The translations under genes were made by a program, and so were the position numbers. From assembly GCA_965237415.1 (NCBI GenBank), contig CBDEFM010000001.1, forward strand, positions 320,001 through 384,000: 64,000 bases of DNA. The letters are read 5' to 3'. Positions within the stretch are counted from its first letter, which is position 1; every line of letters begins with the position of its first letter. Positions 21,880 to 53,361 of this stretch are shown here, piece after piece. The notes below the pieces were generated by a model that saw nothing but the letters and a program-made list of their open reading frames with translations, was not told the DNA's origin and did no database searches. The DNA is from Alphaproteobacteria bacterium (GTDB lineage: Bacteria > Pseudomonadota > Alphaproteobacteria > UBA828).

Positions 21880-22048
21880 GGCGCGGCTCCGGCGGGAGCG
21901 AAGCGAGATATCGGCATGAAGGACTCCTCGGGTCTCACGGGGGACACCCGATACCGGCCGGCCCGGCTCTCGCCGGCGCCGGATGGCGAGCGTGCCGCGC
22001 GAAGCGCGGGCGCGATGCCCGAACGGGAGCGGACTCGAAACACATTGG

Positions 22049-22081
22049 AAAGAGAAACGGCCGGGGCGCGAAGCGCCGGCC
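22049..22081 (-). terminator. Terminator-like hairpin after the NADAR gene
   Basis: GGCGC-GAA-GCGCC hairpin with a minus-strand TTTCTCTTT tail. Confidence 0.55.
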
Positions 22082-22085
22082 CGGC

Positions 22086-22631
22086 TCACGGGGCGCCGGC
22101 AAGCCGTCCGACGTCTATCCGGCCAATCCATGCGGCGGAGCGCGCCGCGGGGTCGTCGTCGCGAAGGTGCTGGCGGAGCTCCATCCACAGGCGCCCCAGC
22201 ACGTTCGCGCCGAAGTAGCTGTCGCCCGCCGGCTTGGCGCCCCACCAGGCGTCGCGGGTCGATATCTCCACGATGGCGCGCTCACCGGTACGCACGAGCT
22301 CGGCGTCGACGGCGGCCGCGTTCTTCTCGCGCTTCATGCGCAGGACCCAGCGCATCACGTTCACCCGCCGGGCGGTCCAGCGCGGGTCCAGGCCCGGTAC
22401 CGGGCTGCGTCCGATGGCGGCGGCCTCGCGCGCCGTCGGGGCGTTCGCAATCCGCTGCTGCACATCGGGGGCGGCGGCGAACTTGGCGGCCTGGTACAGG
22501 TGTTCCGAGGTGGCAAAGGTCCACGGGCCAGCGGCGATCGGCACGGCCAGCGGCTGGAAGTTGCTGAACGCGCCCCAAGCCTCGCGGGTAAACCGAAACC
22601 CGCACACGTCGTCCTTCTCGTAGATTCGCAT
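22086..22631 (-). CDS. NADAR (YbiA-like) family protein
   Basis: FSNF, FATSEHLYQAAKF, VMRWVLRMK, IVEISTRDAWWG, GANVLGRLWMELR. Confidence 0.9.
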   Translation of the reverse strand: MRIYEKDDVCGFRFTREAWGAFSNFQPLAVPIAAGPWTFATSEHLYQAAKFAAAPDVQQRIANAPTAREAAAIGRSPVPGLDPRWTARRVNVMRWVLRMKREKNAAAVDAELVRTGERAIVEISTRDAWWGAKPAGDSYFGANVLGRLWMELRQHLRDDDPAARSAAWIGRIDVGRLAGAP

Positions 22632-22770
22632 GCTGTCGTCCTCCGTTGCGGGCGGCGGGCTCTACTCGTTTCTTCCGCCCCTCACGAACCCAAACGCTCG
22701 CCTCTGCCCGGCTCGGGGAAGCGCGCGCGCGAGGCTCCGACCGATACGGTCTCCAATCGGTCCGCACGAG

Positions 22771-22800
22771 AAAGGGGCCGACGCGCGAAGCGCCGGCCCC
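22771..22800 (-). terminator. Terminator-like hairpin
   Basis: GGGGCCG...GCGAAGC...CGGCCCC with a short T tail on the minus strand. Confidence 0.5.
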
Positions 22801-22814
22801 TGTCGGTTCTCGTC

Positions 22815-23156
22815 TCACTCGTAGCGTGGCCGCGTTCTCGGAAAGTCCGCGCCGGCGTGCGGCTCGATGCGCAGCACGGGCCACCCGGTGCAGAGCACCG
22901 AATCCGGCGGGTGAAGCCCCTGCCGGCGTTCGGCGATGGCCGGCGCCATCGCATCGCGGGCCGCCGTCGCCGAGGCGATGGTGGAATACGTGCCGCGGCA
23001 CGCGACGAAGGCGCCGGTGTCGTACCACCACCCGCCTTCCTCCGGCCCGCCGAAGGCGCGGTTCGTCCGGTACTCGTTCAGATGGAACGGCACTTCCGGC
23101 GCCGGCCGTCCGGCGTCGGCGTCCCGGCAGGCGATTGCGTTTGCTGCGTCGCTCAT
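22815..23156 (-). CDS. Hypothetical protein with GGPEEGGWWYD motif
   Basis: 113 aa, plausible codon usage, distinctive motif, C-terminal RPRYE. Confidence 0.7.
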   Translation of the reverse strand: MSDAANAIACRDADAGRPAPEVPFHLNEYRTNRAFGGPEEGGWWYDTGAFVACRGTYSTIASATAARDAMAPAIAERRQGLHPPDSVLCTGWPVLRIEPHAGADFPRTRPRYE

Positions 23157-23243
23157 GTGCGGGTCTCTTTCAGCGTGGGGGATGCGGGACTCTCTCGACA
23201 CGAGTCCCGTTCACCCTCTCGACGCGCGCCTCGTGCTCCGGCG

Positions 23244-23813
23244 CTACCCGGCCAACGTGCGGAACGTCGCCGAGACGCGCGTCGCGGACTCGCGCACGCT
23301 GTCGGCGCGGTCGATGCCATGCACCCACCGCTGGCGTGCTGGCCCGGCGAGGACCAGGACCGAGCGCCGGGGGAGCACCGCGACCTCGTCGCCGGGCATG
23401 GCGCCGCTGGCGTACGGACGGGTGCCGCGGGGCCGGAACCGCATCGGCCAGTCGGCGCCGAGCGAGAGCGAGGCCACGACGGGACCAAAGTCGCGGTGGT
23501 CGGCGTGCATGCCGATACCCTGTCCGGGGCGGTACTCGTTGACGATGCACTGCACCGGGAGCGCGCCGCCGAAGTGCGGCCGGAGCCGAACGGCCATCGC
23601 GTCGGTCCAGCGTGGGAACGGCGTGGCCGGGAGCGGCCGGCTCGACCCCCTGTAGTCGTAGCGGAACCCGTAGTGCTGCACGCGGCGGCGGAGCTCGGTG
23701 AACCAGGGGGCCTCGGCGATGCGCAGGAGGATGCGCCCCTCCTCGGCGGGGGTGACGAAGTCCGGGGCGATGACCGCCCCGCTGTCGAAGATGCTGGTGG
23801 TGTCGCGCGGCAT
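23244..23813 (-). CDS. AlkB-family 2OG-Fe(II) dioxygenase
   Basis: RRVQHYG.RYDY, IVNEYRPGQGIGMHAD (HxD), WVHGI, RVSATFR (RxxxxxR). Confidence 0.9.
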   Translation of the reverse strand: MPRDTTSIFDSGAVIAPDFVTPAEEGRILLRIAEAPWFTELRRRVQHYGFRYDYRGSSRPLPATPFPRWTDAMAVRLRPHFGGALPVQCIVNEYRPGQGIGMHADHRDFGPVVASLSLGADWPMRFRPRGTRPYASGAMPGDEVAVLPRRSVLVLAGPARQRWVHGIDRADSVRESATRVSATFRTLAG

Positions 23814-23901
23814 GCTCTCTCTCCTTCCCGATATGGACATCCACACGGGCATCCACTCGGACTCCGGCGGACGGTGGGCGGGGAGACTCGAAGCCATCGG
23901 C

Positions 23902-23936
23902 AAAAAAAAGGGGACCGACGCCGAAGCGCCGGCCCC
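23902..23936 (-). terminator. Intrinsic terminator after ssb
   Basis: GC hairpin with TTCG loop followed by T8 on the minus strand. Confidence 0.75.
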
Positions 23937-23968
23937 CGAGGTGGGAGGGAGGAGGAAGCGACGGTCCG

Positions 23969-24430
23969 CTAGAAGGGGATCTCGTCGTCGAGGTCGGTGG
24001 GCGCCGGGGTGCCGCCGGCAGGCATGGCCGACCCGTTCGCGGGCGCCTGGTCGCCGGAGGTCGCCCCGCCGTTGCCGTTCGGGCGGTCGAGGAACTGCAC
24101 CCGCCCGCCGGGGACGAGGAGAATCTCGGTCGAGAACCGGTCGCCGTCCTCACCCGGCTTCGTCCAGCGCCGCGTCTGCAGCTTGCCGTCGATGTAGACC
24201 AGGCGGCCCTTCTTCGCGTGCCGCTCGAACATGTCGATGAGCCCGTCCTGGAAGGTCACGATGCGGTGCCACTCGGTCTTGTCGACCTTCTCACCGGTCT
24301 GCTTGTTGATGTACGACTCGTCGGTCGCGATGCTCAGGTTGGCCACGCGGCCCCCCGAGGTGAGGTGATTGACGGTGACGTCGGCGCCGAGGCGGCCAAT
24401 CAGTTCCACGCGGTTGAGTCCGAAAGCCAT
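23969..24430 (-). CDS. ssb: Single-stranded DNA-binding protein
   Basis: NRVELIGRLGAD, TEWHRIV, YIDGKLQTRRW, acidic tail DDEIPF. Confidence 0.95.
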   Translation of the reverse strand: MAFGLNRVELIGRLGADVTVNHLTSGGRVANLSIATDESYINKQTGEKVDKTEWHRIVTFQDGLIDMFERHAKKGRLVYIDGKLQTRRWTKPGEDGDRFSTEILLVPGGRVQFLDRPNGNGGATSGDQAPANGSAMPAGGTPAPTDLDDEIPF

Positions 24431-25863: not shown

Positions 25864-27114
25864 ATGTTCGAATCACTGTTCACAGGACGCAGAACGCTTG
25901 AGACATACAGGGCAGCGCCCCTCTTGGACTGCCGGGTGCGATACCTCGGGAATCGTGCTGAGTCGGGTGCCAACGTCGTCACATTGCGTACCATTGCAGT
26001 GCATCAGCTTCGTCTCGTTCTCCTTCTCGATTTCGCGGAAGGCGATACCGTCAGCCTTGGACAGATAAAGGCCGCTGCCGAAGAGTGGTCCTGTCCTGGA
26101 CTGCACAGAATTTACAAGCCCTCATCATCGAGGCGGAGAGCGGATTTTGTTGGGCAAGTCGTCCAGTGGCTCCGATTCCTGGGCATGTTTGAAGAATCCG
26201 ACGACGTCAAACACGCTCACACTGCCGAGGTCGGCGCGTATGAGGATTGGATGCGCGACGAGCGCGGTTTCTCAGAAGCCTCCATCTACCGTTATTGCAG
26301 TTACGCGGATGAGTTTTTGGAATGGCTGGGCGCCAACGATCTGACGCTAGGTTCGGTTCGGATTACCGACATCGATCGCGCGATCGCGGCCAAGCAGGCC
26401 AGAAGACGCTACAGCCGCTGGACGATACGGAACTACGCTGTCGGTTTACGCACGTTCTTCCGCTTTGCCGAACGTCAGCGCTGGTGCACGCAAGGCATGG
26501 CCGAGGGAATCATCCCTCCACGGATCTATGCGACGGAGTCGGTGCCTTTGGGCCCGACCCGGGACGACGTGCAGTTGCTGCTCGCGAGTACCGAGCGCGG
26601 CAGACCAATGGACAAGCGCGACCGCGCAATCCTGATGATTCTTATTGCTTACGGGCTGCGAAGCGGGGAAGTCTGCGGACTGCAGCTCAACGATGTCGAT
26701 TGGGAGAACGAGAGGTTGCGAGTGCGCCGATCGAAGTCAGGTCGAACGCATTTCTACCCCCTGTCCCGGGGCGTGGGCCAGGCCATCATCCGGTACGTTC
26801 TCGAGGTCCGTCCGCCGCTCGCCGAACGCACTCTCTTCGTTACCGTGAGAGCTCCATTCAGACCGCTCAGTCCGAGCGGCATGGCGGAAGTCGTTAGAAG
26901 CCGCTTCGAACGTCTCGGCATCGTCGCCCGGCGTATGGGGCCCCACGGACTACGACATGCGGCCGCTCAGCATCTTCTCGACCAGGGCATGTCAATGAAG
27001 GTTGTTGGGGATTTTCTCGGACACCGTCACCCGTCGAGTACGGGGGTTTACGCCAAGGTCGACCTCAGCACCCTTCGGGAAGTGGCCGATTTCGACTTGG
27101 AGGTGCTGGCATGA
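25864..27114 (+). CDS. RIT tyrosine recombinase A
   Basis: RDRAIL..YGLRSGEV, KSGR, HGLRH, LGH, TGVY. Confidence 0.9.
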   Translation: MFESLFTGRRTLETYRAAPLLDCRVRYLGNRAESGANVVTLRTIAVHQLRLVLLLDFAEGDTVSLGQIKAAAEEWSCPGLHRIYKPSSSRRRADFVGQVVQWLRFLGMFEESDDVKHAHTAEVGAYEDWMRDERGFSEASIYRYCSYADEFLEWLGANDLTLGSVRITDIDRAIAAKQARRRYSRWTIRNYAVGLRTFFRFAERQRWCTQGMAEGIIPPRIYATESVPLGPTRDDVQLLLASTERGRPMDKRDRAILMILIAYGLRSGEVCGLQLNDVDWENERLRVRRSKSGRTHFYPLSRGVGQAIIRYVLEVRPPLAERTLFVTVRAPFRPLSPSGMAEVVRSRFERLGIVARRMGPHGLRHAAAQHLLDQGMSMKVVGDFLGHRHPSSTGVYAKVDLSTLREVADFDLEVLA

Positions 27115-28055
27115 CTCTCCAAGAAGCAATGGGGCAATACATTGAGTGGCGACAAGCCCACGGCGCGCGTTTCGAGAGTGTTGGGGCCGTGCTCAGGATG
27201 TTCGTCAGATTCGTTGGTGGCGAGACGGACTGCGATGCCGTTACCAATGCGCAGGTCTGCGCGTTTCTCGCGGGGAATCGGCCACTTACCCACTACCGTG
27301 TCGCGAAGTACTCGTCACTGTCGGTGTTCTACCGGTATGCGATCAGCCGCGGTTACGCGAGCCGATCGCCGCTGCCTGACAATGAGCCGAGGACTCCGGC
27401 GCGATTGCCGCCGTACATATACTCGTACGAGGAACTGCGGCGTCTCTTTGAGGCGATAGACGTCAGCCGAACGCGGGCGTTGCAGCTTGACGCGTACACA
27501 CTCCGCACCCTGCTGCTTCTTCTGTACGGGGCCGGCTTGCGCCGCGGTGAAGCGCTGGGCCTCACGGTAGCGGATGTCGACCTCTCAGATGCGGTGCTCA
27601 CCGTGCGCGACACGAAGTTCTTCAAATCCCGCCTGGTTCCCGTGGGTCGTCCTCTCGGCGATGCGCTGAGATCGTATGCGATACAGCGCATGAAACGGCC
27701 TCTCCAGAAAGGGAAGGAATCAGCCTTCTTGGCGAGCTGGGACGGCGCAAAGCTGAAGGTAACGACCGTTCGGGCCGCGTTCGAAAATCTCCTGCGTGAT
27801 GCTGGAATCCCCAAGGCAAACGATTTGCGCCAACCCCCGCGCCTGCATTCGTTCAGGCACAGCTTTGCCGTCCATCGGCTGACTTCATGGTATCGGGAGG
27901 GCGCGGACTTGCAACGGTTACTGCCAGCGCTTTCTACCTACCTTGGCCACAAGAATCTGGCAGGCACGCAAGTCTACCTCACGATGACACCAGAACTGCT
28001 GCACCAAGCTTCACTTCGGTTCGAGCGCTACGCGCGGGGAGAAAACGATGAGTGA
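27111..28055 (+). CDS. RIT tyrosine recombinase B
   Basis: GLRRGEAL, TKFFKSRLVP, HSFRHSFA, LPALSTYLGH, TQVY. Confidence 0.9.
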   Translation: MTLQEAMGQYIEWRQAHGARFESVGAVLRMFVRFVGGETDCDAVTNAQVCAFLAGNRPLTHYRVAKYSSLSVFYRYAISRGYASRSPLPDNEPRTPARLPPYIYSYEELRRLFEAIDVSRTRALQLDAYTLRTLLLLLYGAGLRRGEALGLTVADVDLSDAVLTVRDTKFFKSRLVPVGRPLGDALRSYAIQRMKRPLQKGKESAFLASWDGAKLKVTTVRAAFENLLRDAGIPKANDLRQPPRLHSFRHSFAVHRLTSWYREGADLQRLLPALSTYLGHKNLAGTQVYLTMTPELLHQASLRFERYARGENDE

Positions 28056-29043
28056 GACACAGACCGTGGGACCCTGGATCGAACGGTTTCTCTTCCAGCA
28101 CATCGTCACGGAGCGCAATCTCTCGCGGAATACCCAGAAGAGCTACCGCGATGCATTCTTGCAGTTGATGCCATTCGTCAGCGGCAAGGCCAGAAAGCCC
28201 ATAGAGCGACTGGCGTTCCGCGACTTCACGGCCAAGCGCATCCTGCAGTTCCTCGCCCATGTCGAGGAGGACCGGGGGTGCACTGTTCAGACCCGCAACC
28301 AGCGCTTGGCGGCTATCCGGGCGTTTGCCGGCTACGTGGCCAGCCGTGAGCCAGGGCACATCGGATGGTGCGGTCACATCCGCGCTCTTCAATCGAAGAA
28401 GAGCACACCCCAACAGATCACCTGGCTGACCTTGCAGGAGATTAATGCGTTGCTCGAGGTGCCTGACCGAAGCACGGTACGCGGTCGAAATGAATACGCC
28501 CTCCTGCTGTTTTTGTATAAAACTGGAGCTCGTGTCTCGGAAGCGATACAGCTACGCGTAGGCGATCTGCAGATCATGCGTCGAGACCAGGGACATGCGC
28601 TCGTTACCCTACATGGTAAGGGCGGTAAGGTACGACAGTGCCCGCTGCGGCCAAACACGGAAGGCGTGCTGGCGGACCTCGTAGACGGACGCGACCCGGG
28701 CGAACCGGTCTTCCTTAGCAGGCTTCGAAAGCCGTTTACTCGGTTCGGCGTGTATTGGGTTGTCGACCGTTGTTCGGCCCGCGTTCCAGCGTTGTCCGGG
28801 AAGAAAGTAACGCCCCACGTGCTGAGGCACACCACGGCGTGCCACCTCGTCGACGCCGGTGTAGATCCCAACACCGTGCGCGCGTGGCTTGGCCACGCGT
28901 CGCTCAATACCACCAACATCTACGCCGAGATCAGCCTCGAAATGAAGGCCAAGGCGATTGCAATGTGCGACATGGCTGAAGACGGACCGACGCAACCGTG
29001 GAAGGAGAACAAGGGTCTCATGGCAGCACTGCGAGCTTTGTGA
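28048..29043 (+). CDS. RIT tyrosine recombinase C
   Basis: TRNQRLAAIR, TGARVSE, HGKGGK, PHVLRHTTA, WLGH, TNIY. Confidence 0.9.
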   Translation: MSETQTVGPWIERFLFQHIVTERNLSRNTQKSYRDAFLQLMPFVSGKARKPIERLAFRDFTAKRILQFLAHVEEDRGCTVQTRNQRLAAIRAFAGYVASREPGHIGWCGHIRALQSKKSTPQQITWLTLQEINALLEVPDRSTVRGRNEYALLLFLYKTGARVSEAIQLRVGDLQIMRRDQGHALVTLHGKGGKVRQCPLRPNTEGVLADLVDGRDPGEPVFLSRLRKPFTRFGVYWVVDRCSARVPALSGKKVTPHVLRHTTACHLVDAGVDPNTVRAWLGHASLNTTNIYAEISLEMKAKAIAMCDMAEDGPTQPWKENKGLMAALRAL

Positions 29044-35988: not shown

Positions 35989-36207
35989 TCAGTGCGGGAT
36001 GGGCTGGCCGGTGGCGCCCGGCGGGCCGATGGCGACGTCGATGTGGTCGCCGTCGACGGTGATGGTGACCGTGCGGTCGCGAGGCATGAGCCAGTGGATC
36101 TCGGTCCAGAGGGCGTTGGCGATGGCGCGGCGCTGCGCGTCGTCGCCCGAGCACGCCGGGGCGGGCGTTGCGCCGGTGTCCCGGCGGGAAGCGCTGAGAA
36201 GGTCCAT
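35989..36207 (-). CDS. Small protein homologous to the C-terminal domain of the GHKL protein
   Basis: IANALWTEIHWLMPRDRTV aligns to IADALSREIFWLFPRDRDV. Confidence 0.6.
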   Translation of the reverse strand: MDLLSASRRDTGATPAPACSGDDAQRRAIANALWTEIHWLMPRDRTVTITVDGDHIDVAIGPPGATGQPIPH

Positions 36208-36446
36208 GGGCGGAATCTCCGGTGAAATGATGAAGGGACTTGGCGGACCGGGGACGCTCCCTCGCCCCGGCTCTCGCTCGCCCGCGCGAAGGCCGGACCC
36301 GGCTCCGGGCGGCGCCGGGTCCGGACTGGCGGTCGATGAAAGGGCGGCGGTGAACCGGGGGTTGGTCGTCGAGGAGGCGGTTTCGGGCGCGTCCTCGCCT
36401 GTCCGTCACGTCAGGGGTGCGCGTCCGGGATGCGCCCGGACGAGTG

Positions 36447-36788
36447 TCAGGCGGGGCTGGTTTCGCGCGTGTGCGCCCAGGGGCATTGCTCCCACAGCGT
36501 GCGGAGCGTGCGCGGCATGCCCGCGTACTCGCCGTCGTTGTGGTTGTAGGAGGGCCAGTCCTGGTCGCGCATCCAGGTGGAGCCGTCGAGGTAGTAGACG
36601 CCGCCGGGGCATGTGCGCCGGATTGGGGCGCCGTCCGCGGGCCGCCATTCGTAGCCGATGAGCGGCCGGTCGTGGTGGTCGGAGCGGTAAAGGGTCAGCC
36701 GCCATTCGTGCTTGCCGATCGTCATGGGCTCGGACTGGCGGATAACCCGGTTGCCGGCGAAGTCGAATGCGCTCCCGCCCTCCATCAT
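36447..36788 (-). CDS. Hypothetical Trp/Tyr-rich protein (113 aa)
   Basis: ATGA overlap with the upstream zinc-ribbon gene, GGAG RBS. Confidence 0.6.
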   Translation of the reverse strand: MMEGGSAFDFAGNRVIRQSEPMTIGKHEWRLTLYRSDHHDRPLIGYEWRPADGAPIRRTCPGGVYYLDGSTWMRDQDWPSYNHNDGEYAGMPRTLRTLWEQCPWAHTRETSPA

Positions 36789-37150
36789 GCGGTCTCCGCG
36801 ACGGGCTTCATCGTGTAGCTGCACTCGACATCGCAGTCGGCGCAGATCGCGGCGGGCTCGTATGTGCTGTGCAACGCCCAGCGCTGGGCATCGACGTCCC
36901 AGCAGGCCCACGCATCCACTTGGACACCGGTGCCGCCGCAGGTGTTGCAGACGGGCTGCATGCGCGGTCCCGCCGCGGGCTCGCGCGGGTTCAGCATCGC
37001 TGCGCCGCCGCACCCCTCGACCGGGCAGTCGCCGGCGGGCATGACGTCGCCGGGATGCACGCGCTCATGCAGGTGACGGAATTCCAGCGTGTCGTCGACC
37101 GGACCCGTCCAGCCGCAGTCCTGGCACGCGGCGGTCTCTATCTGGCCCAT
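36785..37150 (-). CDS. Double zinc-ribbon-like protein
   Basis: CQDC, CPVEGC, CNTC, CADC; GAGGAG RBS. Confidence 0.7.
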   Translation of the reverse strand: MGQIETAACQDCGWTGPVDDTLEFRHLHERVHPGDVMPAGDCPVEGCGGAAMLNPREPAAGPRMQPVCNTCGGTGVQVDAWACWDVDAQRWALHSTYEPAAICADCDVECSYTMKPVAETA

Positions 37151-37178
37151 GGGGCTTCTCCTCGAATCGCAGGGGAAT

Positions 37179-37282
37179 TGGTGGGGCGGGCGGGATTCGA
37201 ACCCGCGAGGTCGGTCCCTCCAGTTGACTCCGACCACTCCCGCGCAGAGGGCGTTCACAGCTTGGCCGGAGCCTCACGCCCC
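37179..37282 (-). ncRNA. tRNA-like element with a non-canonical anticodon domain
   Basis: Acceptor GGGGCG/CGCCCC-ACCA, D arm GGCT-CCGGCCA-AGCT, T arm GCGGG-TTCGAAT-CCCGC, 51-nt central region. Confidence 0.65.
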
Positions 37283-37339
37283 GATGGCGCTCGACCGAAG
37301 GGCGAGTCCGAAATCCCTGTCCCCGGTCGGAATCGCAGC

Positions 37340-37678
37340 TCAGTGCAACAGGTCGGCGACGCCGAGCCTCTCGAAGGCGTGGCGCAATCCGTCGTCACTT
37401 CCGGGGTCGATCTTCATCGGGCCGTAGCCGGCTTCGTCGTTCCACCGCGCGAGCTCGCGCAGCTGCTCTGTGAACTCGGCATCGGTGTCGCAGACCGTCG
37501 TGGTGAGATCTCCTTCGGCGAAGTTGACGATCGTGCGCACGGCGGGCGAACACCATGTGCCGTAATAAGAGGCATCCTGCTTCGTATCGACCTGGGCGAA
37601 GCCGTTGGCGATTGAGCATGGGCCGCAGTCGAAGCTGTAGCGGTCCGACAGCGGCTTGAAGTCTCGGCTGGTTTTCAT
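37340..37678 (-). CDS. Hypothetical protein (112 aa)
   Basis: DRYSFD...GFAQVDTKQDASYYGTW...NFAEGD; good codon usage. Confidence 0.7.
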   Translation of the reverse strand: MKTSRDFKPLSDRYSFDCGPCSIANGFAQVDTKQDASYYGTWCSPAVRTIVNFAEGDLTTTVCDTDAEFTEQLRELARWNDEAGYGPMKIDPGSDDGLRHAFERLGVADLLH

Positions 37679-37744
37679 GGGGTCTTGGTCCCTCGTAGCG
37701 AACGCTTGGATGGCGCTCGATGGAGCGGTGGGGCCGGCCTGGCG

Positions 37745-38233
37745 TCAGTTGTCGAATCCGCAGATGCGAATCCGGGCCCGTCCTTCGGTGACCGTCACGT
37801 CCGGGCGGCCCCCGGGTCCGGGCGTGACGATGACGAGCGGTTTGTTGGCTGGGGGATGCGGCGGATCGCGCACCTCCGCGGTGACCGTGCCGGCGGTGCT
37901 CGCGAAACGCATGAGCACCCGCCCGCGGGTGACTTCGATACCGCCGCCGGGCTTTGCCGGGTCGGTGATGGTGACGATCGGCGGCTCGCCCTGCTCGGTG
38001 AAGCGGTCGGGCACCGGCAACGCGGTATCCGTGGCCCACGGATCGGCATCGGCGCCCTCGCACACGGCATCGACGTGCGAGTCGCCGCAATGGTCGAGGG
38101 AGCGCCAGGCATCGCTCTGGTTGGCGGCCTCGAGGGCCTTCTCCAGCGCCTCATCGAGGGTCTCCGCCTCGACGGTGACGGTGTTCGCGAAATACGCCGG
38201 ATACACACACTGGACAGTGAACGGTCTGGTCAT
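37745..38233 (-). CDS. Hypothetical protein with a duplicated C-terminal beta-rich unit
   Basis: TGATG overlap with the GHKL gene, GAGG RBS. Confidence 0.65.
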   Translation of the reverse strand: MTRPFTVQCVYPAYFANTVTVEAETLDEALEKALEAANQSDAWRSLDHCGDSHVDAVCEGADADPWATDTALPVPDRFTEQGEPPIVTITDPAKPGGGIEVTRGRVLMRFASTAGTVTAEVRDPPHPPANKPLVIVTPGPGGRPDVTVTEGRARIRICGFDN

Positions 38234-39981
38234 CACGCCACCTCTGCAACGGGCTCGCCCAGCGTGACCGTCACCTTGCGGTCGCGCACCGCGATGTCGA
38301 CGTCGCGGTCGCGGGGGAAGAGCCAGAAGATCTCGCGCGAGAGCGCATCGGCGATGGAAACCTTGCGTGCCTCGTCGTCCGAACAAAGAAGCCTCGTGGC
38401 AATGTGAAGGGCCTCGTGGTCGAAGTCCGCCCTTTGCCGGTCCCACGAGTCGGCGTCGGCGTCATCGGAAGGCGAGAAGAACCCGGCCCGCATCAGCTCG
38501 GCGAGCGCATGGGGTTCGAGAGTGCTGGCGATGGTCACCAGCGGCAGGGCGTCGCCGACCCACGACCAGGCTTCGCCGGCGAACGCGAGATCGGTGTCGA
38601 GGTCGACGATGCGCCCCGGCCCCTCGGCCGGCCTGACCGCGAGGCCGATGCAGATCGCGTCGGGCTGCTGCGGCAGGGGCGCCTGCGGCGCGCCCGTCCG
38701 GTCGGGCACGGGATACGTATCAAGGGCGCAGGCTCGCCCCCCGGCCGTGACCGTGGTGTGGATGTTGCGGACCCGGTCGAGCCGGTCGTACCACGCATAG
38801 CCTTCGAGACGGCGGTCGGTCTCGAACAGGCGGTCCGCGATGCCGGCCCGCTTCGCCGCGCGCGCAAACGCCTGAGCTTCCGGCGGCTCGGGGTCGCAGG
38901 CCATGACCAGCGCGCCATCGCCGACGGCGGCACGCTTCGGCGGCTCGCGCCAGTCGTCGACGTCGGCGAGGCTCGCGCGCCAGGGGCGAAGCTCGGCCGG
39001 CGGCGCGGCGATGTCGATGTCGGCCTCGTGCGCCCGCTTGCGGTCCTCGAAGCACGGGCGCGGGTCCGGATCGGCGGCCATGGCGCGGAAGATGGCAAGG
39101 CGCGCGGCCTCGCGCATCCCGGCAAGGAACGGCGTCTCGACCGCCTCCTTGCGGGCGGGCAGCACCAGCTCCAGGTCGGGGCAGTCGTCGATATCGGCGG
39201 CCACCGTCCACTGGGGACCATGCACGGCTTCGACGGTCGGCAGGCGGACGGCCACGGTGAGGCCGTGGAAGTTCACATCCGGGTCGTTCAGGCCGAAGCC
39301 GTTCCAGCGGTCCTTGAACACGCCGAAGACCAACCCCTGCCAACGCTCGGCATGCAGCGCGCCGTCGAGGAAGGCGCAGCGTTCGAGCGCCGCGCCGCCG
39401 GCCGGGGTGTCCGGCACGTTCTCGAAGAAGACCGGCAGCGGATAATGGCGCGCGGCGGTCTCGGCGGCCCGGCGGATGGCCTCGGCGGTCTCGGTCTCCG
39501 TCGCCTGGAAGGTGACGGCGGTGCCATAGCGCCAGGGCGCGGCATCGTCGGGATAAACGTGGGCTTCGGCTTCGCCCAGGAAGTGCGCGGGCGTCAGCTC
39601 GACACGCCAGCCCGGGGCGGGGTCGTAGCCCGTGGTCCGGGTCCGGGACGAGACGGTGCAGCCGCGTCGCGCGAGGCTCAGCATGCCCATGCCGGCGGCG
39701 TCCTCGCGGCGGACCAGGTCCTCGTTCCAGCCGTTCTCGCCGAACGACAGCAGGACGGACGCGTCGGCGATGCCGGCGCCATCGTCGGCGACGGTGACGG
39801 TCAGGGGGCCGGTCTCAGGGCCGCCGACGATGACGTGGACGCGCGTGGCGCCGGCCCGACGGCAGTTCTGAAAGGTCTCGGTGAAGATGTCCGCGAGCCC
39901 GGCGGCATACATCCTTGTGACGCGGCGGATGGCGCCGTCATGGACCCGCGCGCGGATGGGCGAGGCGATGGAATCGTTCAT
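38233..39981 (-). CDS. GHKL (HATPase_c)-type ATP-binding protein
   Basis: ETFQNCRRAGA, VADDGAGI, AGMGMLSL, GTAVTF (Bergerat-fold motifs). Confidence 0.8.
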   Translation of the reverse strand: MNDSIASPIRARVHDGAIRRVTRMYAAGLADIFTETFQNCRRAGATRVHVIVGGPETGPLTVTVADDGAGIADASVLLSFGENGWNEDLVRREDAAGMGMLSLARRGCTVSSRTRTTGYDPAPGWRVELTPAHFLGEAEAHVYPDDAAPWRYGTAVTFQATETETAEAIRRAAETAARHYPLPVFFENVPDTPAGGAALERCAFLDGALHAERWQGLVFGVFKDRWNGFGLNDPDVNFHGLTVAVRLPTVEAVHGPQWTVAADIDDCPDLELVLPARKEAVETPFLAGMREAARLAIFRAMAADPDPRPCFEDRKRAHEADIDIAAPPAELRPWRASLADVDDWREPPKRAAVGDGALVMACDPEPPEAQAFARAAKRAGIADRLFETDRRLEGYAWYDRLDRVRNIHTTVTAGGRACALDTYPVPDRTGAPQAPLPQQPDAICIGLAVRPAEGPGRIVDLDTDLAFAGEAWSWVGDALPLVTIASTLEPHALAELMRAGFFSPSDDADADSWDRQRADFDHEALHIATRLLCSDDEARKVSIADALSREIFWLFPRDRDVDIAVRDRKVTVTLGEPVAEVA

Positions 39982-40005
39982 GGGCGGTCTCCTCAAACGA
40001 TGCGG

Positions 40006-40074
40006 AAACGAAAGCGCCCCGCGCGGCCTGCCCCGGCCTGTGAGCCGGGACGGGTTGCCGGCGGGGCGCTTCGT
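40006..40074 (-). terminator. Long terminator-like hairpin after the ParB-like gene
   Basis: AAGCGCCCCGC...GCGGGGCGCTT inverted repeat with a T-rich minus-strand tail. Confidence 0.6.
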
Positions 40075-40088
40075 GGGATGGCGGACGG

Positions 40089-42593
40089 TCAGTGGACGCG
40101 GCGCAGGAACTCGGGGATCTCCAGCGCGTCGTCGGCCACGGTGCGGCCGTTGACGCGTCCGGGGTGCGGCACGGTCGCGTCCGTGTCGATCGCCTCGGCG
40201 AGCTGCGGGTCGGCCGGGGGTTCCTCCGGTCCGTCCCGTCCGTTCACCGGTTCCGGGCCGGCCTCGCCCTCCGCACGGGAGGGAGCCGCGTGGCCGTTGC
40301 CGTTGGCAGGGCCGTCCGGGACGTGCGCGTCGCCCGGCGCAGGCTCGGCGGAGTCGCCACTGCCGTTCGAAGCATCGACCGCACGGGCGACAGCGAGGCG
40401 TTCGGCGACAGCCGGCGAGTCGATGCTCTCGACCACCGACGTCGTGCGCGGCTTCTCCTCGGACTCGGATGTTGCCGTTGCATCCTCCGATGCGTCCGCG
40501 GGTTTCGCCGGCTCGTCCGCCACGGCGGGTTCGGCATTGGCGTCGTCTTCAACGCCGCCGCCCCCGTCGAACGCCGCGAAACCGGGCGGCGCCCAGGCGA
40601 GCGCGGCGGCATGCGCCGTGGCGCCGAGGCCGACCGGCGTGGCGCCGGCCGCGAACGCGGTCTCCATCGCGTCGGCGAGCTTCGTCTTCTTGTACTTCGC
40701 GCGCGCCGACGTCCAGGCTGCGCCGAACGTGTCTCTGGCGACGTCGAGGATGCGGCTCTTCGTGATGCGCGACCACAGCATGGCGGCGGTCGGCCGGACA
40801 TGCTTCGCGAAGTCGATGTCGAGCCGTGCGACGGTGGCTTCGAGCTCGGGCCGGGCGTCGTGCTCGAAGGCGAGCTGGCCCTTGACCGTGCGCGCGATCG
40901 CGGCCGCGAACAGCTTTTCCTTGTCGGACCGGGGCAATGCCCGGAGTGCTGCGAAGCAGGCCGCGTCGTCGTCCCCTTCCATCCACTCGAACGGCAGGTG
41001 CGACCAGTCGGCGAGCATTGCTTCGCCCGGGCTCCAGGCGGCGAAGTCCTCGTCGTTGGCCCGCATGGTGGGCCGGTCGGCGGTCTCGTTGAAGACGATG
41101 TCGAGCGCGTGATACGAGCCGGTGTAGCCGCGCGCGAACACGGCGCGCACGAGCTGGAACACCACGAGGTCGAAGGCGGCCTCGAAGTCCTCGGCCAGAT
41201 ACGCCTTCACGAGCGCGGTGCGGATGGCGCGCAGATCGTCGCCGAGCCCGATGCCGACGCCGGCTTCCGCGCGCGCCACGGCACGCGGGTCCACCGGTGA
41301 GGCGATCGGCGTCGTGATGGCGGGGCCGTCCACGCGTCCCGAATCTGTGCCGTCGCCATTTGCGCCGGTGCCGGCATCCTGGGCGTTGCTGTCGGCGGCG
41401 GGCTCCTTCGGCATGTCCTCGGGCTTCACCAACCCCTGGATGACCTGGAGCGAGCCGTCGCGCCCGACGGTGGCGATGCAGCCGGCAATCGCGAAATCCT
41501 CCCGCCGGAACGTCGCCCTCGCCTCGACATCGGCCTCGATCGCGTCGAGACGCGGCTCAATGGCTTCGGCCTCCTCGACCAGCTCGTCGGTCCAGTCGTC
41601 CTCGTCGAGGTTGACGAGCTCGTCATGGCGGAGCCGCAGCTTCTCGATCTCGGCGGTCTCCTCGGCCGTCGGCTGGCCGGGCTCGGGATGGATGCGGCCG
41701 TAGCGCGCGGTGGCGCTCCAGTCGACGTCCGGCACCGCCTCGGCCCACTTCCAGCGGGTCGCGAGCTCGTCGGCGGCGGCGGTTAGCTTCGCGATGGCGA
41801 GCTGGTTCAGAAGCGCCGGGTCCTCGAGCCAGACGCCGTTCTCGTGCTCGTCGGCGAAGAGGTCGCGCAACACCGGGCCGCCCGCGGCCTCGTAGGCGTC
41901 GACGCCGACATAGCGGGCCATGGCGGCGCCTGCCGGCACCCGTTCCTCGGTCAGCATGCGCTTCACCTGCCAGGCGCTCGGCCGGTGACCCTGGGCCGAG
42001 ACCTGCTCCCACACCGCGCGCTGGCGGTCGTGGTCGGTGGTGACGGCGAATGCCTTCAGCGTCTCGAGGTCGATCTCATCGGCGCGGTAGGCATCCAGCA
42101 GCTCGGGCGCGGCGTTGCCGAGCCGGAGGCGCTGCTCGACGATGCGCTCGCTGACGCCGAAACGCGCGGCGATGGAAGCCACCGTGACACCGGCCCCGGC
42201 GAGCTCGCTGAACGCGACCACCTGGTCGGCGGGGTGCATCGCGATGCGGATGACGTTCTCCGCGAGCGAGAGCTCGCCCGCATTGCCGTTCGCGGCGATC
42301 TTGCAGGGAACGGGGTGATCGGCATGGAGCGTGCCGTCCTCGGCGAGCGCCTTCAGCGCCGCGAGGCGGCGTCCGCCGGCGACGACGGCGAAGCATTCGA
42401 CGCCGTCATCATCCGCACCGTCGGCGCGGGCGACGAGGTTCTCCAGCAGGCCGTGGGCCTTGATGGACGCGCGGAGCTGGACCTGGGCGAAGTCGTCGGG
42501 CGGGGTCTTGCGCACGTTCTCGGGCGCAAGCGCGAGCCGGCAGAGCGGGATTTCCCGGATGAGCGGCTCGGGAGGGGAAGCGATCTGGTTCAT
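40089..42593 (-). CDS. Orphan ParB/RepB/Spo0J-family protein with long C-terminal region
   Basis: PENVRK, SIKAHGLLENL, VVAGGRRLAAL, SLAEN..R..MHPAD, HTH; ORF stays open upstream to ATG 43022. Confidence 0.88.
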   Translation of the reverse strand: MNQIASPPEPLIREIPLCRLALAPENVRKTPPDDFAQVQLRASIKAHGLLENLVARADGADDDGVECFAVVAGGRRLAALKALAEDGTLHADHPVPCKIAANGNAGELSLAENVIRIAMHPADQVVAFSELAGAGVTVASIAARFGVSERIVEQRLRLGNAAPELLDAYRADEIDLETLKAFAVTTDHDRQRAVWEQVSAQGHRPSAWQVKRMLTEERVPAGAAMARYVGVDAYEAAGGPVLRDLFADEHENGVWLEDPALLNQLAIAKLTAAADELATRWKWAEAVPDVDWSATARYGRIHPEPGQPTAEETAEIEKLRLRHDELVNLDEDDWTDELVEEAEAIEPRLDAIEADVEARATFRREDFAIAGCIATVGRDGSLQVIQGLVKPEDMPKEPAADSNAQDAGTGANGDGTDSGRVDGPAITTPIASPVDPRAVARAEAGVGIGLGDDLRAIRTALVKAYLAEDFEAAFDLVVFQLVRAVFARGYTGSYHALDIVFNETADRPTMRANDEDFAAWSPGEAMLADWSHLPFEWMEGDDDAACFAALRALPRSDKEKLFAAAIARTVKGQLAFEHDARPELEATVARLDIDFAKHVRPTAAMLWSRITKSRILDVARDTFGAAWTSARAKYKKTKLADAMETAFAAGATPVGLGATAHAAALAWAPPGFAAFDGGGGVEDDANAEPAVADEPAKPADASEDATATSESEEKPRTTSVVESIDSPAVAERLAVARAVDASNGSGDSAEPAPGDAHVPDGPANGNGHAAPSRAEGEAGPEPVNGRDGPEEPPADPQLAEAIDTDATVPHPGRVNGRTVADDALEIPEFLRRVH

Positions 42594-48874: not shown

Positions 48875-48965
48875 GTAACGGACAGTCTCCGCCAAAGAGG
48901 AACGGCAGATGCATCCTTACACCGTTCGTGGGGCTAGGTGACGAATCGTCAACGTGGCGGATTCA

Positions 48966-50015
48966 ATGAAGTTGACCGACTTAAAACGACACATACAGGA
49001 GCACTTTCGTGACCGACTGGTTGCGGTGGTCGGGTCCGGGCTGTCGGCGGCCGAGGGTTTGCCCACAATGGTTCAGCTCGAATCCCATCTCCGAACGGAA
49101 GTCCCAAAGCATCTACCGGCTGGGTCGGCTGGAGAGTGGAAGCGAGTCGAGGCAGAGCTTGCAGTCGGAGACGGCCTCGAAGCAGCACTTCATCGTGTCC
49201 AGATTTCGGAAGACCTGGGAGCCACGATTCTCTCCCTAACCGGTACGTACGTTTTGGAATGCGAACGCGAGGTTATACGAAGCGCAGTGGCCGGCGAACG
49301 GATTCTAAGGTTCGCCAGCCTATTGCCCTACTTGAATCCCAAGCCCAATGATCCCGTTTCGGTTGTAACCGTCAACTACGATCGCCTGGTTGAGCTCGGT
49401 GCAGAGATTTCAGGCTGGGGTGTGGACACAATGTTTATAGGGACAAGATTTGGGGTCTTGGACCCTGCCCTCAGCGAACGGTCGTTCGTCCAGGACATCG
49501 CCCGGAGACCCAAGGGCGGGTATCGGTTGATCTACAGAAATCGCATTCGTGTCTACAAACCACACGGAAGTCTCGACTGGTTCAAGAGCGATCGAGGTCC
49601 GTTGTACTGCCCAATTGACTTTCCGGGCGAACGTCTGATCGTAACGCCTGGTGTGACGAAGTATCGGCAGGGCTACGAGCGTCCCTTTGATATACACCGG
49701 GAGAAGGCCAATGAGCAAATCGATGCCTGTCGGCGGCTATTCTGCGTGGGCTATGGGTTTAACGACGACCACCTGCAGGTCCACCTGAGGGACAAGATGC
49801 GGGCGGGTACACCGACTTTAATACTCACTCGAACCTTATCGACGTCAGCCATGGATCTAATTGAACAGTCTTCCGGTGCTATTGCGGTGTCCAACAACGA
49901 AGAAGACCCGACAGGTTCGACAATAGTGGTAGTAACGGCGACTGACTCGGAGGTGATTGCAGCTCCACCTCTGTGGGACCTCGCTGTACTCATCGATGAG
50001 GTACTTTCACCATGA
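48966..50015 (+). CDS. SIR2-family NADase of a Sir2-HerA defence system
   Basis: VVGSGLS, TVNYD, KPHGSLDW, VGYGFNDDH; ATGA overlap with HerA. Confidence 0.88.
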   Translation: MKLTDLKRHIQEHFRDRLVAVVGSGLSAAEGLPTMVQLESHLRTEVPKHLPAGSAGEWKRVEAELAVGDGLEAALHRVQISEDLGATILSLTGTYVLECEREVIRSAVAGERILRFASLLPYLNPKPNDPVSVVTVNYDRLVELGAEISGWGVDTMFIGTRFGVLDPALSERSFVQDIARRPKGGYRLIYRNRIRVYKPHGSLDWFKSDRGPLYCPIDFPGERLIVTPGVTKYRQGYERPFDIHREKANEQIDACRRLFCVGYGFNDDHLQVHLRDKMRAGTPTLILTRTLSTSAMDLIEQSSGAIAVSNNEEDPTGSTIVVVTATDSEVIAAPPLWDLAVLIDEVLSP

Positions 50016-51781
50016 CCGAAGCAGCCCTGCAATTTGGCGACCAGGACCGTATAGGTCGGGTTATTGCGGTAGACACAAGCCGCGTAGCGATTGACGTTGA
50101 AGACCATGGGCTAATGACCACCTTGGCCGTTGGCAATTTGGTCGCCATCCGAGGTTTGACAGCACAGGAATTTTTGATCGGCATTATCGAAAGAGCCACC
50201 CGAAGCGTTCGAGAGGAACTGCTGACGGAAGACGCTGATGAAGAGGGCAACGTTCCGGTTGGCGAGGTACAGGAGGACATAATCCGGGCCGTACTTGTTG
50301 GAACGTTCCGGGTGCTCGATGGGGACATTGTAAATATTTTCAAGCGAGGCGCGGATTCATTTCCACAGATTGACCGCGAGTGTTTTCTTATTTCAGCAGC
50401 AAATCTGCAACGGTTCATGAATTTACTGAGTGCCAATGTTGAGGAAGGGGAGAGACTTCAGCTTGGCCAGTACGTATCAGATAGCAATGCAATTGCAATC
50501 GCAAATGGTGACAAGTTCTTTCAAAGACATGCAGCCGTACTAGGCAGTACGGGTTCGGGTAAGAGTTGGTGCACGGCGCTGATCCTGGAGCGCGCCAGTA
50601 AACTTGCGCATCCCAATCTCATCGTGCTGGACATGCACGGGGAGTATTCTCCGATAGCCGACGAATGTAAGGGATACGCAGCGCAGTTTCGTATCGCTGG
50701 CCCAGGGGACCTGGAAGCGCCGACGAATGAGAACGTATTCTTGCCATACTGGTTACTCAATCGAGAAGAAATGCTTGCCATGATTCTCGATCGGAGTGAT
50801 CAAAATGCTCCCAACCAAGCGTCACGTTTCACGCACCACGTTAAGGAGTTGAAGGACCAGACACTTGACGAAGCGGGAAAGCAAGATGTGCGAAAGACCT
50901 TCACCGTCGATTCTCCAGTATTCTATTCTCTTGACGAACTACTAAAGCGGCTTGAATCGGACGATAGTGGCATGAAACCTGGTGCTGGGAAAAACTTAAT
51001 TAAGGGTGATTGGAATGGAAAGCTGACCAGATTCGTTGCCCGACTAAAAGCGAAGGTCGATGATCGTCGCTATGGATTCATGTTTCGCCCACCCGTTGAA
51101 TCGGCACGTTACGAGTGGTTGGGAGAGCAAGTCGTTAGGCTGCTCGACTCGTCGGAGAAGCGACGTGGGATTAAGGTTGTCGACTTCTCGGAAGTCCCCT
51201 CAGATGTGCTTCCCGTCGTGGCTGGTGTTTTTGCCCGACTATTGTATGACGCACAGTTTTGGATTGAGAAAGCCAGTCGTACACCGATTTGCTTGGTATG
51301 TGACGAGGCTCACCTGTACCTGCCGGTGAAGGCCGAGGCTGAAGCAGTGGAACGGCGGGCACTCGAAACGTTCGAGAGAATCGCCAAGGAGGGGCGCAAG
51401 TATGGCGTTGCCTTGATGGTTGTGAGTCAGCGACCATCAGATGTGAGCCGCACCATTTTGAGTCAATGCAACAATTTTCTGGTTCTAAGATTGACGAACG
51501 ACCAAGATCAGTCAGTCGTAAGAAGGCTGATGCCGGATTCAATGGTCAGTTTCACGGAGATGCTGCCGCTGCTGGAAACTGGGGAGGCGCTGCTCTTGGG
51601 AGACGCTGTCCTTCTTCCAACAAGAATTCGCCTTGATGTTCCTGAACTGAAGCCCGCAAGTGCCACCCGAGATTTCTGGACAGAATGGCGAGAGCGAACC
51701 CCGAAGGAGAAAGCGATTCAAGACGCAATTGAGACATTGCGTCGGCAAAGTCGTTTGAACTCCCAGGATGGAGGTTGCTAG
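50012..51781 (+). CDS. HerA/FtsK-family ATPase of a Sir2-HerA defence system
   Basis: N-terminal HAS-like barrel, GSTGSGKS, LDMHGEY, CDEAHLY, AKEGRKYG, SQRPSD. Confidence 0.9.
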   Translation: MTEAALQFGDQDRIGRVIAVDTSRVAIDVEDHGLMTTLAVGNLVAIRGLTAQEFLIGIIERATRSVREELLTEDADEEGNVPVGEVQEDIIRAVLVGTFRVLDGDIVNIFKRGADSFPQIDRECFLISAANLQRFMNLLSANVEEGERLQLGQYVSDSNAIAIANGDKFFQRHAAVLGSTGSGKSWCTALILERASKLAHPNLIVLDMHGEYSPIADECKGYAAQFRIAGPGDLEAPTNENVFLPYWLLNREEMLAMILDRSDQNAPNQASRFTHHVKELKDQTLDEAGKQDVRKTFTVDSPVFYSLDELLKRLESDDSGMKPGAGKNLIKGDWNGKLTRFVARLKAKVDDRRYGFMFRPPVESARYEWLGEQVVRLLDSSEKRRGIKVVDFSEVPSDVLPVVAGVFARLLYDAQFWIEKASRTPICLVCDEAHLYLPVKAEAEAVERRALETFERIAKEGRKYGVALMVVSQRPSDVSRTILSQCNNFLVLRLTNDQDQSVVRRLMPDSMVSFTEMLPLLETGEALLLGDAVLLPTRIRLDVPELKPASATRDFWTEWRERTPKEKAIQDAIETLRRQSRLNSQDGGC

Positions 51782-52128
51782 CTGTGGGAAATGGGATGCG
51801 TGGTGCTGTATCCGTTTCCGGGAAAAAGTTGCACTACCTGCCGGAGTCGATCAACGGACGAGCACAATTTGTACATCGAACGGTGTCGGTGATTTGTCAA
51901 TGGCGAAGATATGCGAGGGCAAGGGACGGAGCAAGAGAGTGCCAGCTTGGTTTTGGGCGCGGCTGAGCGTTCGCTCGGTTCGGACTGGGAGCTCCGGTGC
52001 GTCAGGCTTCTCCGGACGCCGGTTGATCTCCTTCCGGGGGGGCTGCTTGGTAGTGGAGGACCGAATGGCGCCTAGCCGCTGTGCCGCGGCTGCACAGTCG
52101 ATATCCGCCTAACGGAGGTCTGTTTGGG

Positions 52129-53361
52129 ATGAACGGCGGCGATAGGGTACAGAAGTGCAAACCAACACTCAACCATGCTTTGAGACAGTTCGAGTTGGCT
52201 GAAGCGAACCTGGCTAGGCTCGAAACGCTCTGGCAGAAGATTGAAGGCGAGTTGCCGAACGGACCAGCATTTGGTGCTCCTCCTAAGTACGACGAGTGGT
52301 GCATTGCGTTCAAAAGCATCCTCGCGATGTTGCCTGCCGTGGATGGCTTTCGCGTCGAAGATCACCTGTACGAGTACGATGAAGCGGGGCAGATGCAGTT
52401 TGATGCGTTAGAGTTGGGTGAGGTCGAAGCGCAGCTTAGTGTTTCTAGGGAGTTGGCGGAACAGGGACGTCAACTCAGAGAGTATCGTGTTCACTTCCAA
52501 GCGAAACGGCGGAAGTTGGTGCGCGACAGGATTTTGAAGAGAATGAGTGAGCTGGACCAAGTAGTGGCCCAGTTTGACCGTAAGGGCTCCGGAGGGCGGG
52601 GCAAGCCAAACGTTGCGATTGGGGCGTGGAGCCAGCTACGAAAGGCAGTCGACGAGATCGAGACATTGCTTGGCAGCAGTGGTCGGCCAGAACAGTGGAG
52701 CACCCTGAAGCGGCCACGGCACGATGACAACGATGCTCAAGTCGCCGGGGAACTCATGGAGGCCGCTTTTCGCGTTTGGCCGAGTGTCAGGGCCTCACTG
52801 AGCGACGGTCTGTACGGCGAGTTAGATCCGATTCCTGTTGGTGCTAACGACTTGGGCGAGGTCGTCAACGAAGATCCAGCAGGGCCGGTGTCGACCAAGT
52901 TGGAGTGGTCTGCGTTGGACGATGAGGATTTCGAACGCTTGGTGTACCAACTGATCTCCGAAGCCAAGGGGTACGAGAACGTACAATGGCTACAAAAGAC
53001 TCATGCGCCGGACCGCGGCCGGGATCTTTCTGCGGACAGAGTGTACGCCGACGCTTTAGGCAGCGTGCGAAGGTTTCGCACAATCATCCAGTGCAAACAC
53101 TGGTTGTCAAGAAGTGTGGGACGCAGTGAGATAGGGGAGGCTCGGGACGCAATGGAACTCTGGCAGCCCCCTCGGGTGGACATCTTGGTCATCGTAACGT
53201 CGGGACGATTTACGGCAGACGCGGTGGCGATAGTGGAGAATCACAACCAGTCCGACAAGGCGCTTGCCATCGAGATGTGGCCGGAGAGTCACCTGGAGAC
53301 GCTCTTGGCTGCCCGACCCCACTTGATCGGTCAGTTTGGCTTGCGTAGCGCAAGCCAGTAG
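52129..53361 (+). CDS. Protein with a C-terminal Mrr-like restriction endonuclease domain
   Basis: DFERLVYQL...DRGRDL...IIQCKHW...IVTSGRFT, the PD-(D/E)xK Mrr_cat pattern. Confidence 0.8.
   Translation: MNGGDRVQKCKPTLNHALRQFELAEANLARLETLWQKIEGELPNGPAFGAPPKYDEWCIAFKSILAMLPAVDGFRVEDHLYEYDEAGQMQFDALELGEVEAQLSVSRELAEQGRQLREYRVHFQAKRRKLVRDRILKRMSELDQVVAQFDRKGSGGRGKPNVAIGAWSQLRKAVDEIETLLGSSGRPEQWSTLKRPRHDDNDAQVAGELMEAAFRVWPSVRASLSDGLYGELDPIPVGANDLGEVVNEDPAGPVSTKLEWSALDDEDFERLVYQLISEAKGYENVQWLQKTHAPDRGRDLSADRVYADALGSVRRFRTIIQCKHWLSRSVGRSEIGEARDAMELWQPPRVDILVIVTSGRFTADAVAIVENHNQSDKALAIEMWPESHLETLLAARPHLIGQFGLRSASQ

Follow-up and report, generated by a model that had tools for sequence, protein, structure and literature searches.

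A conserved tRNA-like element without an anticodon arm on an alphaproteobacterial conjugative element: a possible RNase P processing signal

A tRNA-like element (TLE) of 104 nt was analysed, which lies on the minus strand at 37179-37282 of a stretch of 64,000 nt from an alphaproteobacterium of the lineage UBA828 (assembly GCA_965237415.1, contig CBDEFM010000001.1, positions 320,001 to 384,000 of the forward strand). This whole stretch is called the window below. The TLE is situated between two genes of a long operon, the downstream one being referred to as gene B, and it combines the acceptor stem and the T arm of a tRNA with a hairpin that has no anticodon. We consider, with a probability of about 0.4, that the TLE is a tRNA-derived processing or stability signal for gene B, comparable to the t-elements of plant mitochondria and possibly read by ribonuclease P (RNase P) of the host. 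The basis of this reading is anatomy and analogy. The following parts were recognized in the window copy.

37179-37282, minus strand: the TLE, 104 nt, delimited by sequence reading and homologues; 106.3 bits with the covariance model R1
37277-37282, minus strand: 5' strand of the acceptor stem, GGGGCG, paired with 37183-37188
37183-37188, minus strand: 3' strand of the acceptor stem, CGCCCC; the C at 37189 before it stands opposite U7
37179-37182, minus strand: discriminator A and CCA (the ACCA end), by sequence reading
37190-37206, minus strand: T arm, GCGGG / TTCGAAT / CCCGC, with a perfect 5-bp stem
37228-37271, minus strand: long irregular hairpin replacing the D and anticodon arms (RNAalifold), with CUCCGG/CCGGAG as its outer stem P2
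37207-37220, minus strand: short hairpin, GAGG / 6-nt loop / CCUC, abutting the T stem at the position of a class II variable arm
37151-37178, minus strand: spacer of 28 nt, holding the Shine-Dalgarno sequence GAGGAG (37158-37163) of gene B

An initial annotation of the region as a tRNA mimic had described an acceptor stem GGGGCG/CGCCCC with one mismatch, present with both strands and ending in ACCA, and a perfect T arm with the loop TTCGAAT (37206-37190); both were found on the minus strand exactly as described. The acceptor stem has 6 bp, with a U.C mismatch at position 7. In the window copy the outer stem P2 is extended, and the inner GC stem, P3, occupies 37241-37253. A composite motif was defined as a perfect 5-bp T stem, a TTCRANY loop, 1 nt, a 6-nt strand and NCC, the 6-nt strand requiring a perfect complement 20-100 nt upstream; it occurred once in the window and in none of 300 windows simulated with a first-order Markov model. 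Compared with a canonical tRNA, the window copy has the acceptor stem (6 bp plus U.C), a T arm with a T-Psi-C loop and an NCCA end, and it lacks the D arm and an anticodon arm with a 7-nt loop. Of the attributes of a t-element, the non-canonical tRNA-like fold, the conserved T-loop motif and the position between cistrons on the coding strand are present.

Whether the element has conserved homologues, on which the initial annotation had made its proposal depend, was answered by many of them in genomes, in a species collection and in metagenomes. BLAST against 61 relatives gave 17 further copies, about 76-83% identical and up to three per genome, which are distributed over 10 genomes of the same genus. 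Within the genus, model R1 hit 11 of 21 genomes, at 18 places (84-130 bits); among 28 genomes from elsewhere in the order no score exceeded 32 bits. The exact 21-mer of 37183-37203 was found in none of 400 other genomes sampled across the class, and in 55 stretches of a collection of 185,579 species. Sixteen of these were identified by reading as TLE loci, from alphaproteobacterial metagenome-assembled genomes (MAGs), one Rhodospirillales MAG and, with three loci, two records labelled Gammaproteobacteria; two loci share one gammaproteobacterial MAG chromosome. Outside the TLE family the 21-mer occurs mostly in sequences that read as ordinary tRNAs of other phyla, such as tRNA-Leu(UAA) of Chloroflexi and tRNA-Tyr of Actinomadura, and in a few stretches that are not tRNA-like. 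Searching metagenomes with a gapped pattern yielded 8 family members among 56 stretches. A 1051-nt query including the TLE had only one, unrelated match of 95 nt in a plasmid collection, within the upstream open reading frame (ORF). As a separate observation, three mycobacterial loci (L051, L058 and L076, Mycobacterium / Mycolicibacterium) carry the 21-mer as a T-arm/acceptor end after about 75 nt unlike a tRNA; these could be another tRNA-like element or the remnant of an attachment (att) site.

Over 19 copies, leaving out the locus L012, the TLE has the highest identity in the locus (mean pairwise identity 0.856, and 0.897 for its 3' 44 nt). In the same copies, codon positions 1, 2 and 3 of gene B have values of 0.744, 0.731 and 0.613, the spacer has 0.695 and the upstream flank 0.492. 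This conservation is an argument against the TLE being a functionless relic, i.e. a class II tRNA gene in decay after its capture and the loss of its anticodon arm. The resemblance to class II tRNAs, the existence of loci without a TLE and the damaged copies (L012 and L028 among the genome copies, L012 also having a mutated downstream start codon, and 7 of 8 metagenome copies) would suit such a relic, but a decaying sequence would hardly be the most conserved part of a locus whose flanking coding sequences are only about 61-74% identical in 19 copies. The central hairpin, which is not of tRNA type, is also itself conserved, with indels in its loop only. We regard a relic as the least probable explanation of all.

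Structure was assessed on an alignment of 24 sequences, A2. It omits four of the eight metagenome members: L170, which equals L163 within the element, and L138, L143 and L156, which were missed by an extraction pattern demanding a full-length 3' strand. The family consensus (RNAalifold) consists of five helices, the acceptor stem, P2, the inner GC-rich P3, the short GAGG/CCUC hairpin and the T arm, and 93.0% of its cells pair, versus at most 54.5% with slid partners. Acceptor pairs 1-6/103-108 are formed in 95.8% of cells, without double changes. The five T-stem pairs are invariant over the 24 sequences, one row being gapped at two of them. The short hairpin pairs in 96.7% of cells with no covariation and 3 uncompensated breaks, and its loop sequence is not conserved. 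In the P3 loop there are 2- and 4-nt indels, confined to the loop. The hairpin loops vary in sequence and length, and as none of them is conserved the family has no anticodon; the initial annotation had already reported no canonical anticodon loop. At the discriminator, 15 of the 24 sequences have A and 9 have G; the following CC is kept in 23, and at position 76 there are 14 G, 7 A, 2 C and one gap.

Several other elements of the initial annotation proved to be peculiar to the window copy. Its 4-bp D stem forms fully there only: pair 12-22 is formed in 1 and pair 11-23 in 15 of the 24 sequences, with 65.6% of cells pairing overall. The alternative stems GGTCGG/CCGACC and CCC/GGG pair in 49.3% and 58.3% of cells, respectively, and are window-specific too. 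The terminal A is likewise not a general feature, being encoded in the 7 sequences just mentioned. As to origin, the next-best matches of model R1 in the host genome are four tRNA-Ser genes (23-29 bits), and because the 3' end is in addition common to Leu and Tyr tRNAs elsewhere, the sequences point to descent of the TLE from a class II tRNA.

The surroundings of the TLE are modular. It lies inside a gap of 189 nt between the stop codon of the upstream 112-aa ORF and the ATG of gene B at 37150.

36785-37150, minus strand: gene B, encoding a 121-amino-acid (aa) double Zn-ribbon protein with a CQxCGW motif; the constant downstream partner
37340-37678, minus strand: ORF of 112 aa, matching phrog_24512 of unknown function; the variable upstream partner

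The TLE is intergenic and co-oriented with the flanking ORFs in the window as well as in each of the 19 related copies examined, and gene B starts about 28-30 nt past it whatever gene precedes. The upstream gene differs by copy: most copies have gene A, a paralogue of gene B, at this place, four have a 107-aa gene, and the window shares the 112-aa gene with the gammaproteobacterial copies. The gene pair of the window also occurs without a TLE, at the two 'empty' loci G047 and G005:C2, where a short GC hairpin followed by CCCC-ACC-G takes its place. The leader of gene A formed a GC hairpin in all 16 cases folded (z-score of -2 or lower in 9 of them), followed in about 13 of the 16, judged by eye, by purine-C-C-(A/G) within 0-2 nt; in several leaders the minimum-energy stem reaches into these RCC(A/G) bases. 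As it was seen in all three contexts, a G-initial GC helix followed by RCC is common to the TLE, the empty-locus hairpin and the gene A leader. The gene A hairpin directly follows the stop codon of the DUF2201 gene (L003:2110-2155 and 15 related loci). In one subgroup of these leaders the stem sequence equals the TLE acceptor stem, is followed by ACCA or GCCA, and encloses a loop with an in-frame AUG.

The fixed distance to gene B, together with the GC hairpin before its paralogue, would also be expected if the TLE were a cis-regulatory leader of gene B, either bound by a protein (for example the Zn-ribbon product in autoregulation) or switching between pairings of CUCCGG to control translation. 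Such a switch can be drawn: the 9-pair P2 helix is formed in 84.7% of cells, the 5' strand of P2 pairs alternatively with a second conserved GGAG stretch in 87.5% of cells, without double changes and with breaks in the two sequences that covary in P2, and the Shine-Dalgarno sequence is a third GGAG. However, the TLE ends 28 nt before the AUG and leaves the ribosome-binding site uncovered. Gene B has no recognizable RNA-binding family or fold: no Pfam or NCBIfam family was found, only one weak PHROG of unknown function and 98 unnamed homologues, and its AlphaFold model (pLDDT 70.7) had no Foldseek match in the PDB at E <= 0.001. The retention of a canonical T loop is left unexplained by a leader as well. 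We therefore judge a cis-regulatory leader to be unlikely.

Processing by RNase P would account for the T loop. The bacterial type A enzyme recognizes a helix that carries a T-loop elbow and, at its 3' end, an RCC tail, and bacterial RNase P cleaves minimal helix-plus-RCCA substrates and some intercistronic mRNA sites. The RNase P RNA of the host is of type A (268.3 bits). The TLE would keep just those parts of a tRNA which are read by the processing machinery, i.e. a coaxial acceptor/T-arm minihelix, a canonical T loop and a purine-C-C tail, with the D/anticodon half swapped for a hairpin that does not decode. The host enzyme would cut the polycistronic transcript directly 5' of G1 (37282) and so separate the variable upstream cistron from gene B. 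Two outcomes may be envisaged, a gene B mRNA with a structured, protected 5' end or, if a second cut is made at the 3' side, the release of a tRNA-like RNA about 100 nt long. The combination of a kept RCC with a variable next base fits recognition of an RCC tail and not a need for an encoded A76. The initial annotation had also proposed a signal for RNase Z, which found no support in the host: none was above the cut-off with TIGR02651 (best 33.3 bits versus 292.95).

Several results weigh against cleavage by RNase P. The base at -1 of the TLE is mostly C, and RNase P prefers U at this position. The fold is of unremarkable stability (z = -1.91 for the 104-nt TLE by itself and +0.61 when folded within 206 nt). 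Covariation among homologues, a check suggested by the initial annotation, was obtained only in part: two-sided changes occur in only 3 of 29 pairs, all of them in P2, and there are none in the acceptor and T stems. Single substitutions in stems comprise 12 G.U and 16 A.C cells, without strand bias, and an RNA on the minus strand is therefore not proven by them. Seven of the 8 metagenome copies deviate in the 3' strand of the acceptor stem, which the search pattern had left unconstrained; 4 have C5.A68 and 3 a one-base deletion in C runs. These deletions may be assembly errors or may reflect relaxed constraint.

The same lack of compensatory change in the T and acceptor stems despite conserved sequence, and of a G.U over A.C bias, would be natural for a site acting at the level of DNA, such as an att-like landing pad or a structure in transferred single-stranded DNA, and the window does have genes for tyrosine recombinases, a single one at 57317-58594 and three together at 25864-29043. 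They start about 20 kb and about 8 kb from the TLE as its nearest recombinase genes. Against a DNA site, the copies examined all continue into element DNA downstream of the TLE, none shows an insertion there, and the two acceptor strands are about 90 nt apart, an arrangement which is sensible only if they pair in a single strand. A remnant att site of a tRNA-targeting integrase was ruled out, in agreement with the initial annotation, because the 3' end of the TLE was not matched by any proteobacterial tRNA of the collections; the best host tRNA matches this end at only 23 of 30 positions. The TLE is not at an element boundary either, element genes flanking 19 of 20 copies on both sides; the exception is L012, where the downstream gene is broken. 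A DNA-level site thus appears very unlikely to us.

Other candidate identities were rejected as well. ARAGORN found no tRNA or tmRNA (transfer-messenger RNA) genes in the window and, at default settings, made no call on the 24 family members; relaxed runs were mutually inconsistent. Rfam 15 has no model for the TLE and gave no match at gathering score. In a permissive Rfam scan of 701 nt (E <= 10) the sole match was a weak one to tmRNA, 28.3 bits versus a cut-off of 47, and the Y-RNA families gave none. By these two programs, which the initial annotation had named as checks, and by its strong conservation, the TLE is neither an ordinary nor a decayed tRNA. A tmRNA was excluded by the subthreshold score, by the length of only 104 nt and by the pair at position 3-70, which is G3-C70 in 24 of 24 sequences and not the G3.U70 of tmRNA, as had been noted before. 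The 5' strand of the Rfam tmRNA alignment (from 37240) is seemingly lost in homologues, by eye and with no pair count. Several copies have an in-frame ORF through the TLE which might be an N-terminal extension of gene B; this was ruled out by the 2- and 4-nt indels in the P3 loop, which imply that the TLE is non-coding. Six long ARAGORN calls elsewhere in the host genome (84-98 nt) are without canonical T loops and look like false positives.

Since cleavage by RNase P would supply a route to a free tRNA mimic, a decoy or a chargeable RNA is compatible with it. According to this alternative, the RNA of about 100 nt would act in trans, either by diverting, in the manner of a decoy or sponge, those host factors or defence toxins that recognize tRNA acceptor ends or T arms, or after CCA repair and aminoacylation for a non-ribosomal purpose. 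Purifying selection is strong on every nucleotide of the T arm and on the acceptor stem, beyond what a cleavage signal might need, and the neighbouring genes for NADAR, SSB (single-stranded DNA-binding protein), AlkB-like, ParB-like and SNF2-type helicase proteins look like establishment or anti-defence functions. The TLE resembles class II tRNAs, and the Ser and Leu synthetases are not known to read the anticodon. Yet having no anticodon loop it cannot decoy anticodon nucleases, the discriminator alternates between A and G, and A76 is encoded in only 7 of 24 sequences versus a CCA in 42 of 52 host tRNA calls. The window proteins scanned included no family of tRNA-dependent enzymes. A trans-acting mimic is, on balance, a doubtful proposition, and its most specific form, in which the conjugative element has host enzymes excise an anticodon-less mimic from its establishment operon to serve as decoy, antidote or chargeable acceptor, we think unlikely. 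The leader, DNA-site and relic explanations are less well supported.

The window belongs to a contig of 713 kb in a 4.75-Mb genome of two contigs, whose permuted tmRNA marks the host as an alphaproteobacterium. On the plus strand of the window, at 2.7-13 kb, genes for TraH, TraG, a coupling protein and a TrwC-type relaxase are found, and the host of the TLE is an F-type (MPF-F, mating-pair formation type F) conjugative element with a long co-directional operon. The TLE lies within a block of co-oriented minus-strand genes (19-47 kb), which includes genes for a 1498-aa SNF2/Strawberry-notch-type helicase, a ParB-like protein, DUF2201 and an ATPase; at 19101-24430 of the minus strand there are SLOG/YAcAr, DUF4326, DUF7146+Toprim, NADAR, an AlkB-like 2OG oxygenase and SSB. 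Judged from these sequences the block resembles an establishment or anti-defence region. The term leading region used in the initial annotation is consistent with the co-oriented SSB, NADAR, AlkB-like, Toprim/DUF7146, ParB-like and SNF2-type helicase genes, but no origin of transfer (oriT) was located and the term is a label by content only. Neither a promoter-like nor a terminator-like site was found in 36000-40500.

Some further features of the window were noted. Three tandem overlapping tyrosine-recombinase genes of lower GC content (25864-29043, plus strand), which we take to resemble a 'recombinase in trio' insertion, break the operon between the SSB and the SNF2-type helicase genes. Near the integrase/tyrosine recombinase gene at 57317-58594, two small ORFs (60830-62030, minus strand) have weak NikA-like (relaxosome accessory) matches below the Pfam cut-off and might help to locate oriT. 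A low-GC island (52-59% GC) at 48954-53361 of the plus strand encodes a SIR2-like protein, a HerA-type ATPase and a protein with an Mrr-cat restriction-endonuclease domain; its sequence suggests a cluster of defence genes that the element carries as cargo.

RNA processing signals that resemble tRNAs are known from organelles and archaea and from a few transcripts of phages and eukaryotes. By analogy with them the TLE may be such a processing element on a bacterial conjugative element, a tentative assignment which nevertheless remains our preferred one. No paper was found in the literature that ties a tRNA-like element to conjugative elements or leading regions, and for a paper on anti-defence in leading regions (PMC11541004) the search gave no occurrence of 'tRNA-like'. 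If the TLE is an RNase P site, mobile elements would use the tRNA-maturation enzymes of their hosts to punctuate very long establishment operons; an excised RNA acting in trans would represent a novel type of counter-defence, based on RNA and carried by a conjugative element. Either way the TLE is compact, highly conserved and easy to test, and the covariance model R1 is ready for wider searches.

Among known systems, the Y RNA YrlA is likewise a tRNA mimic without an anticodon, but the acceptor stem of the TLE is terminal and ends in ACC; no Ro/Rsr gene was present among the window proteins scanned, although no search aimed at Ro/Rsr was made. The mascRNA of MALAT1 and the C4 antisense RNA of phages P1/P7 are non-tRNA RNAs processed by RNase P, where a tRNA-like or helix-plus-CCA module in a longer transcript creates RNA ends, and C4 is also on a mobile element. 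In contrast to them, the processing of the TLE is putative, and the sole sequence comparison, with Rfam, gave no match. With tmRNA (RF00023) the TLE shares the acceptor stem, T arm and ACCA, which align to the two ends of the model (E 1.5e-9), and a long helix leaving this domain at the position of the anticodon stem. It differs in having neither a tag reading frame nor pseudoknots, and the host already has its own two-piece tmRNA. The latter (G000:C2:3246729-3247055) is of the permuted type, with the predicted tag ANDNEVALAA. The class II tRNAs have, by eye, the exact 3' 21-mer in tRNA-Leu(UAA) of Chloroflexi and tRNA-Tyr of Actinomadura, and the short hairpin of the TLE is at the place of their long variable arm; unlike them, the TLE has no D arm and no 7-nt anticodon loop. 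Compared with the plant-mitochondrial t-elements, the TLE is bacterial and on a conjugative element, its cleavage is presumed, a conserved long hairpin stands for the D and anticodon arms, and the search with TIGR02651 did not find RNase Z in the host. The likeness is otherwise close: in the available text of PMC1920247, t-elements are non-canonical cloverleaves that keep the acceptor stem and a T arm with the motif GGTTCRANYCC, lie beside protein-coding genes in longer transcripts and coincide with mRNA ends assigned to RNase P/Z, and simple acceptor-like stem-loops, which also coincide with mRNA ends, occur at equivalent sites.
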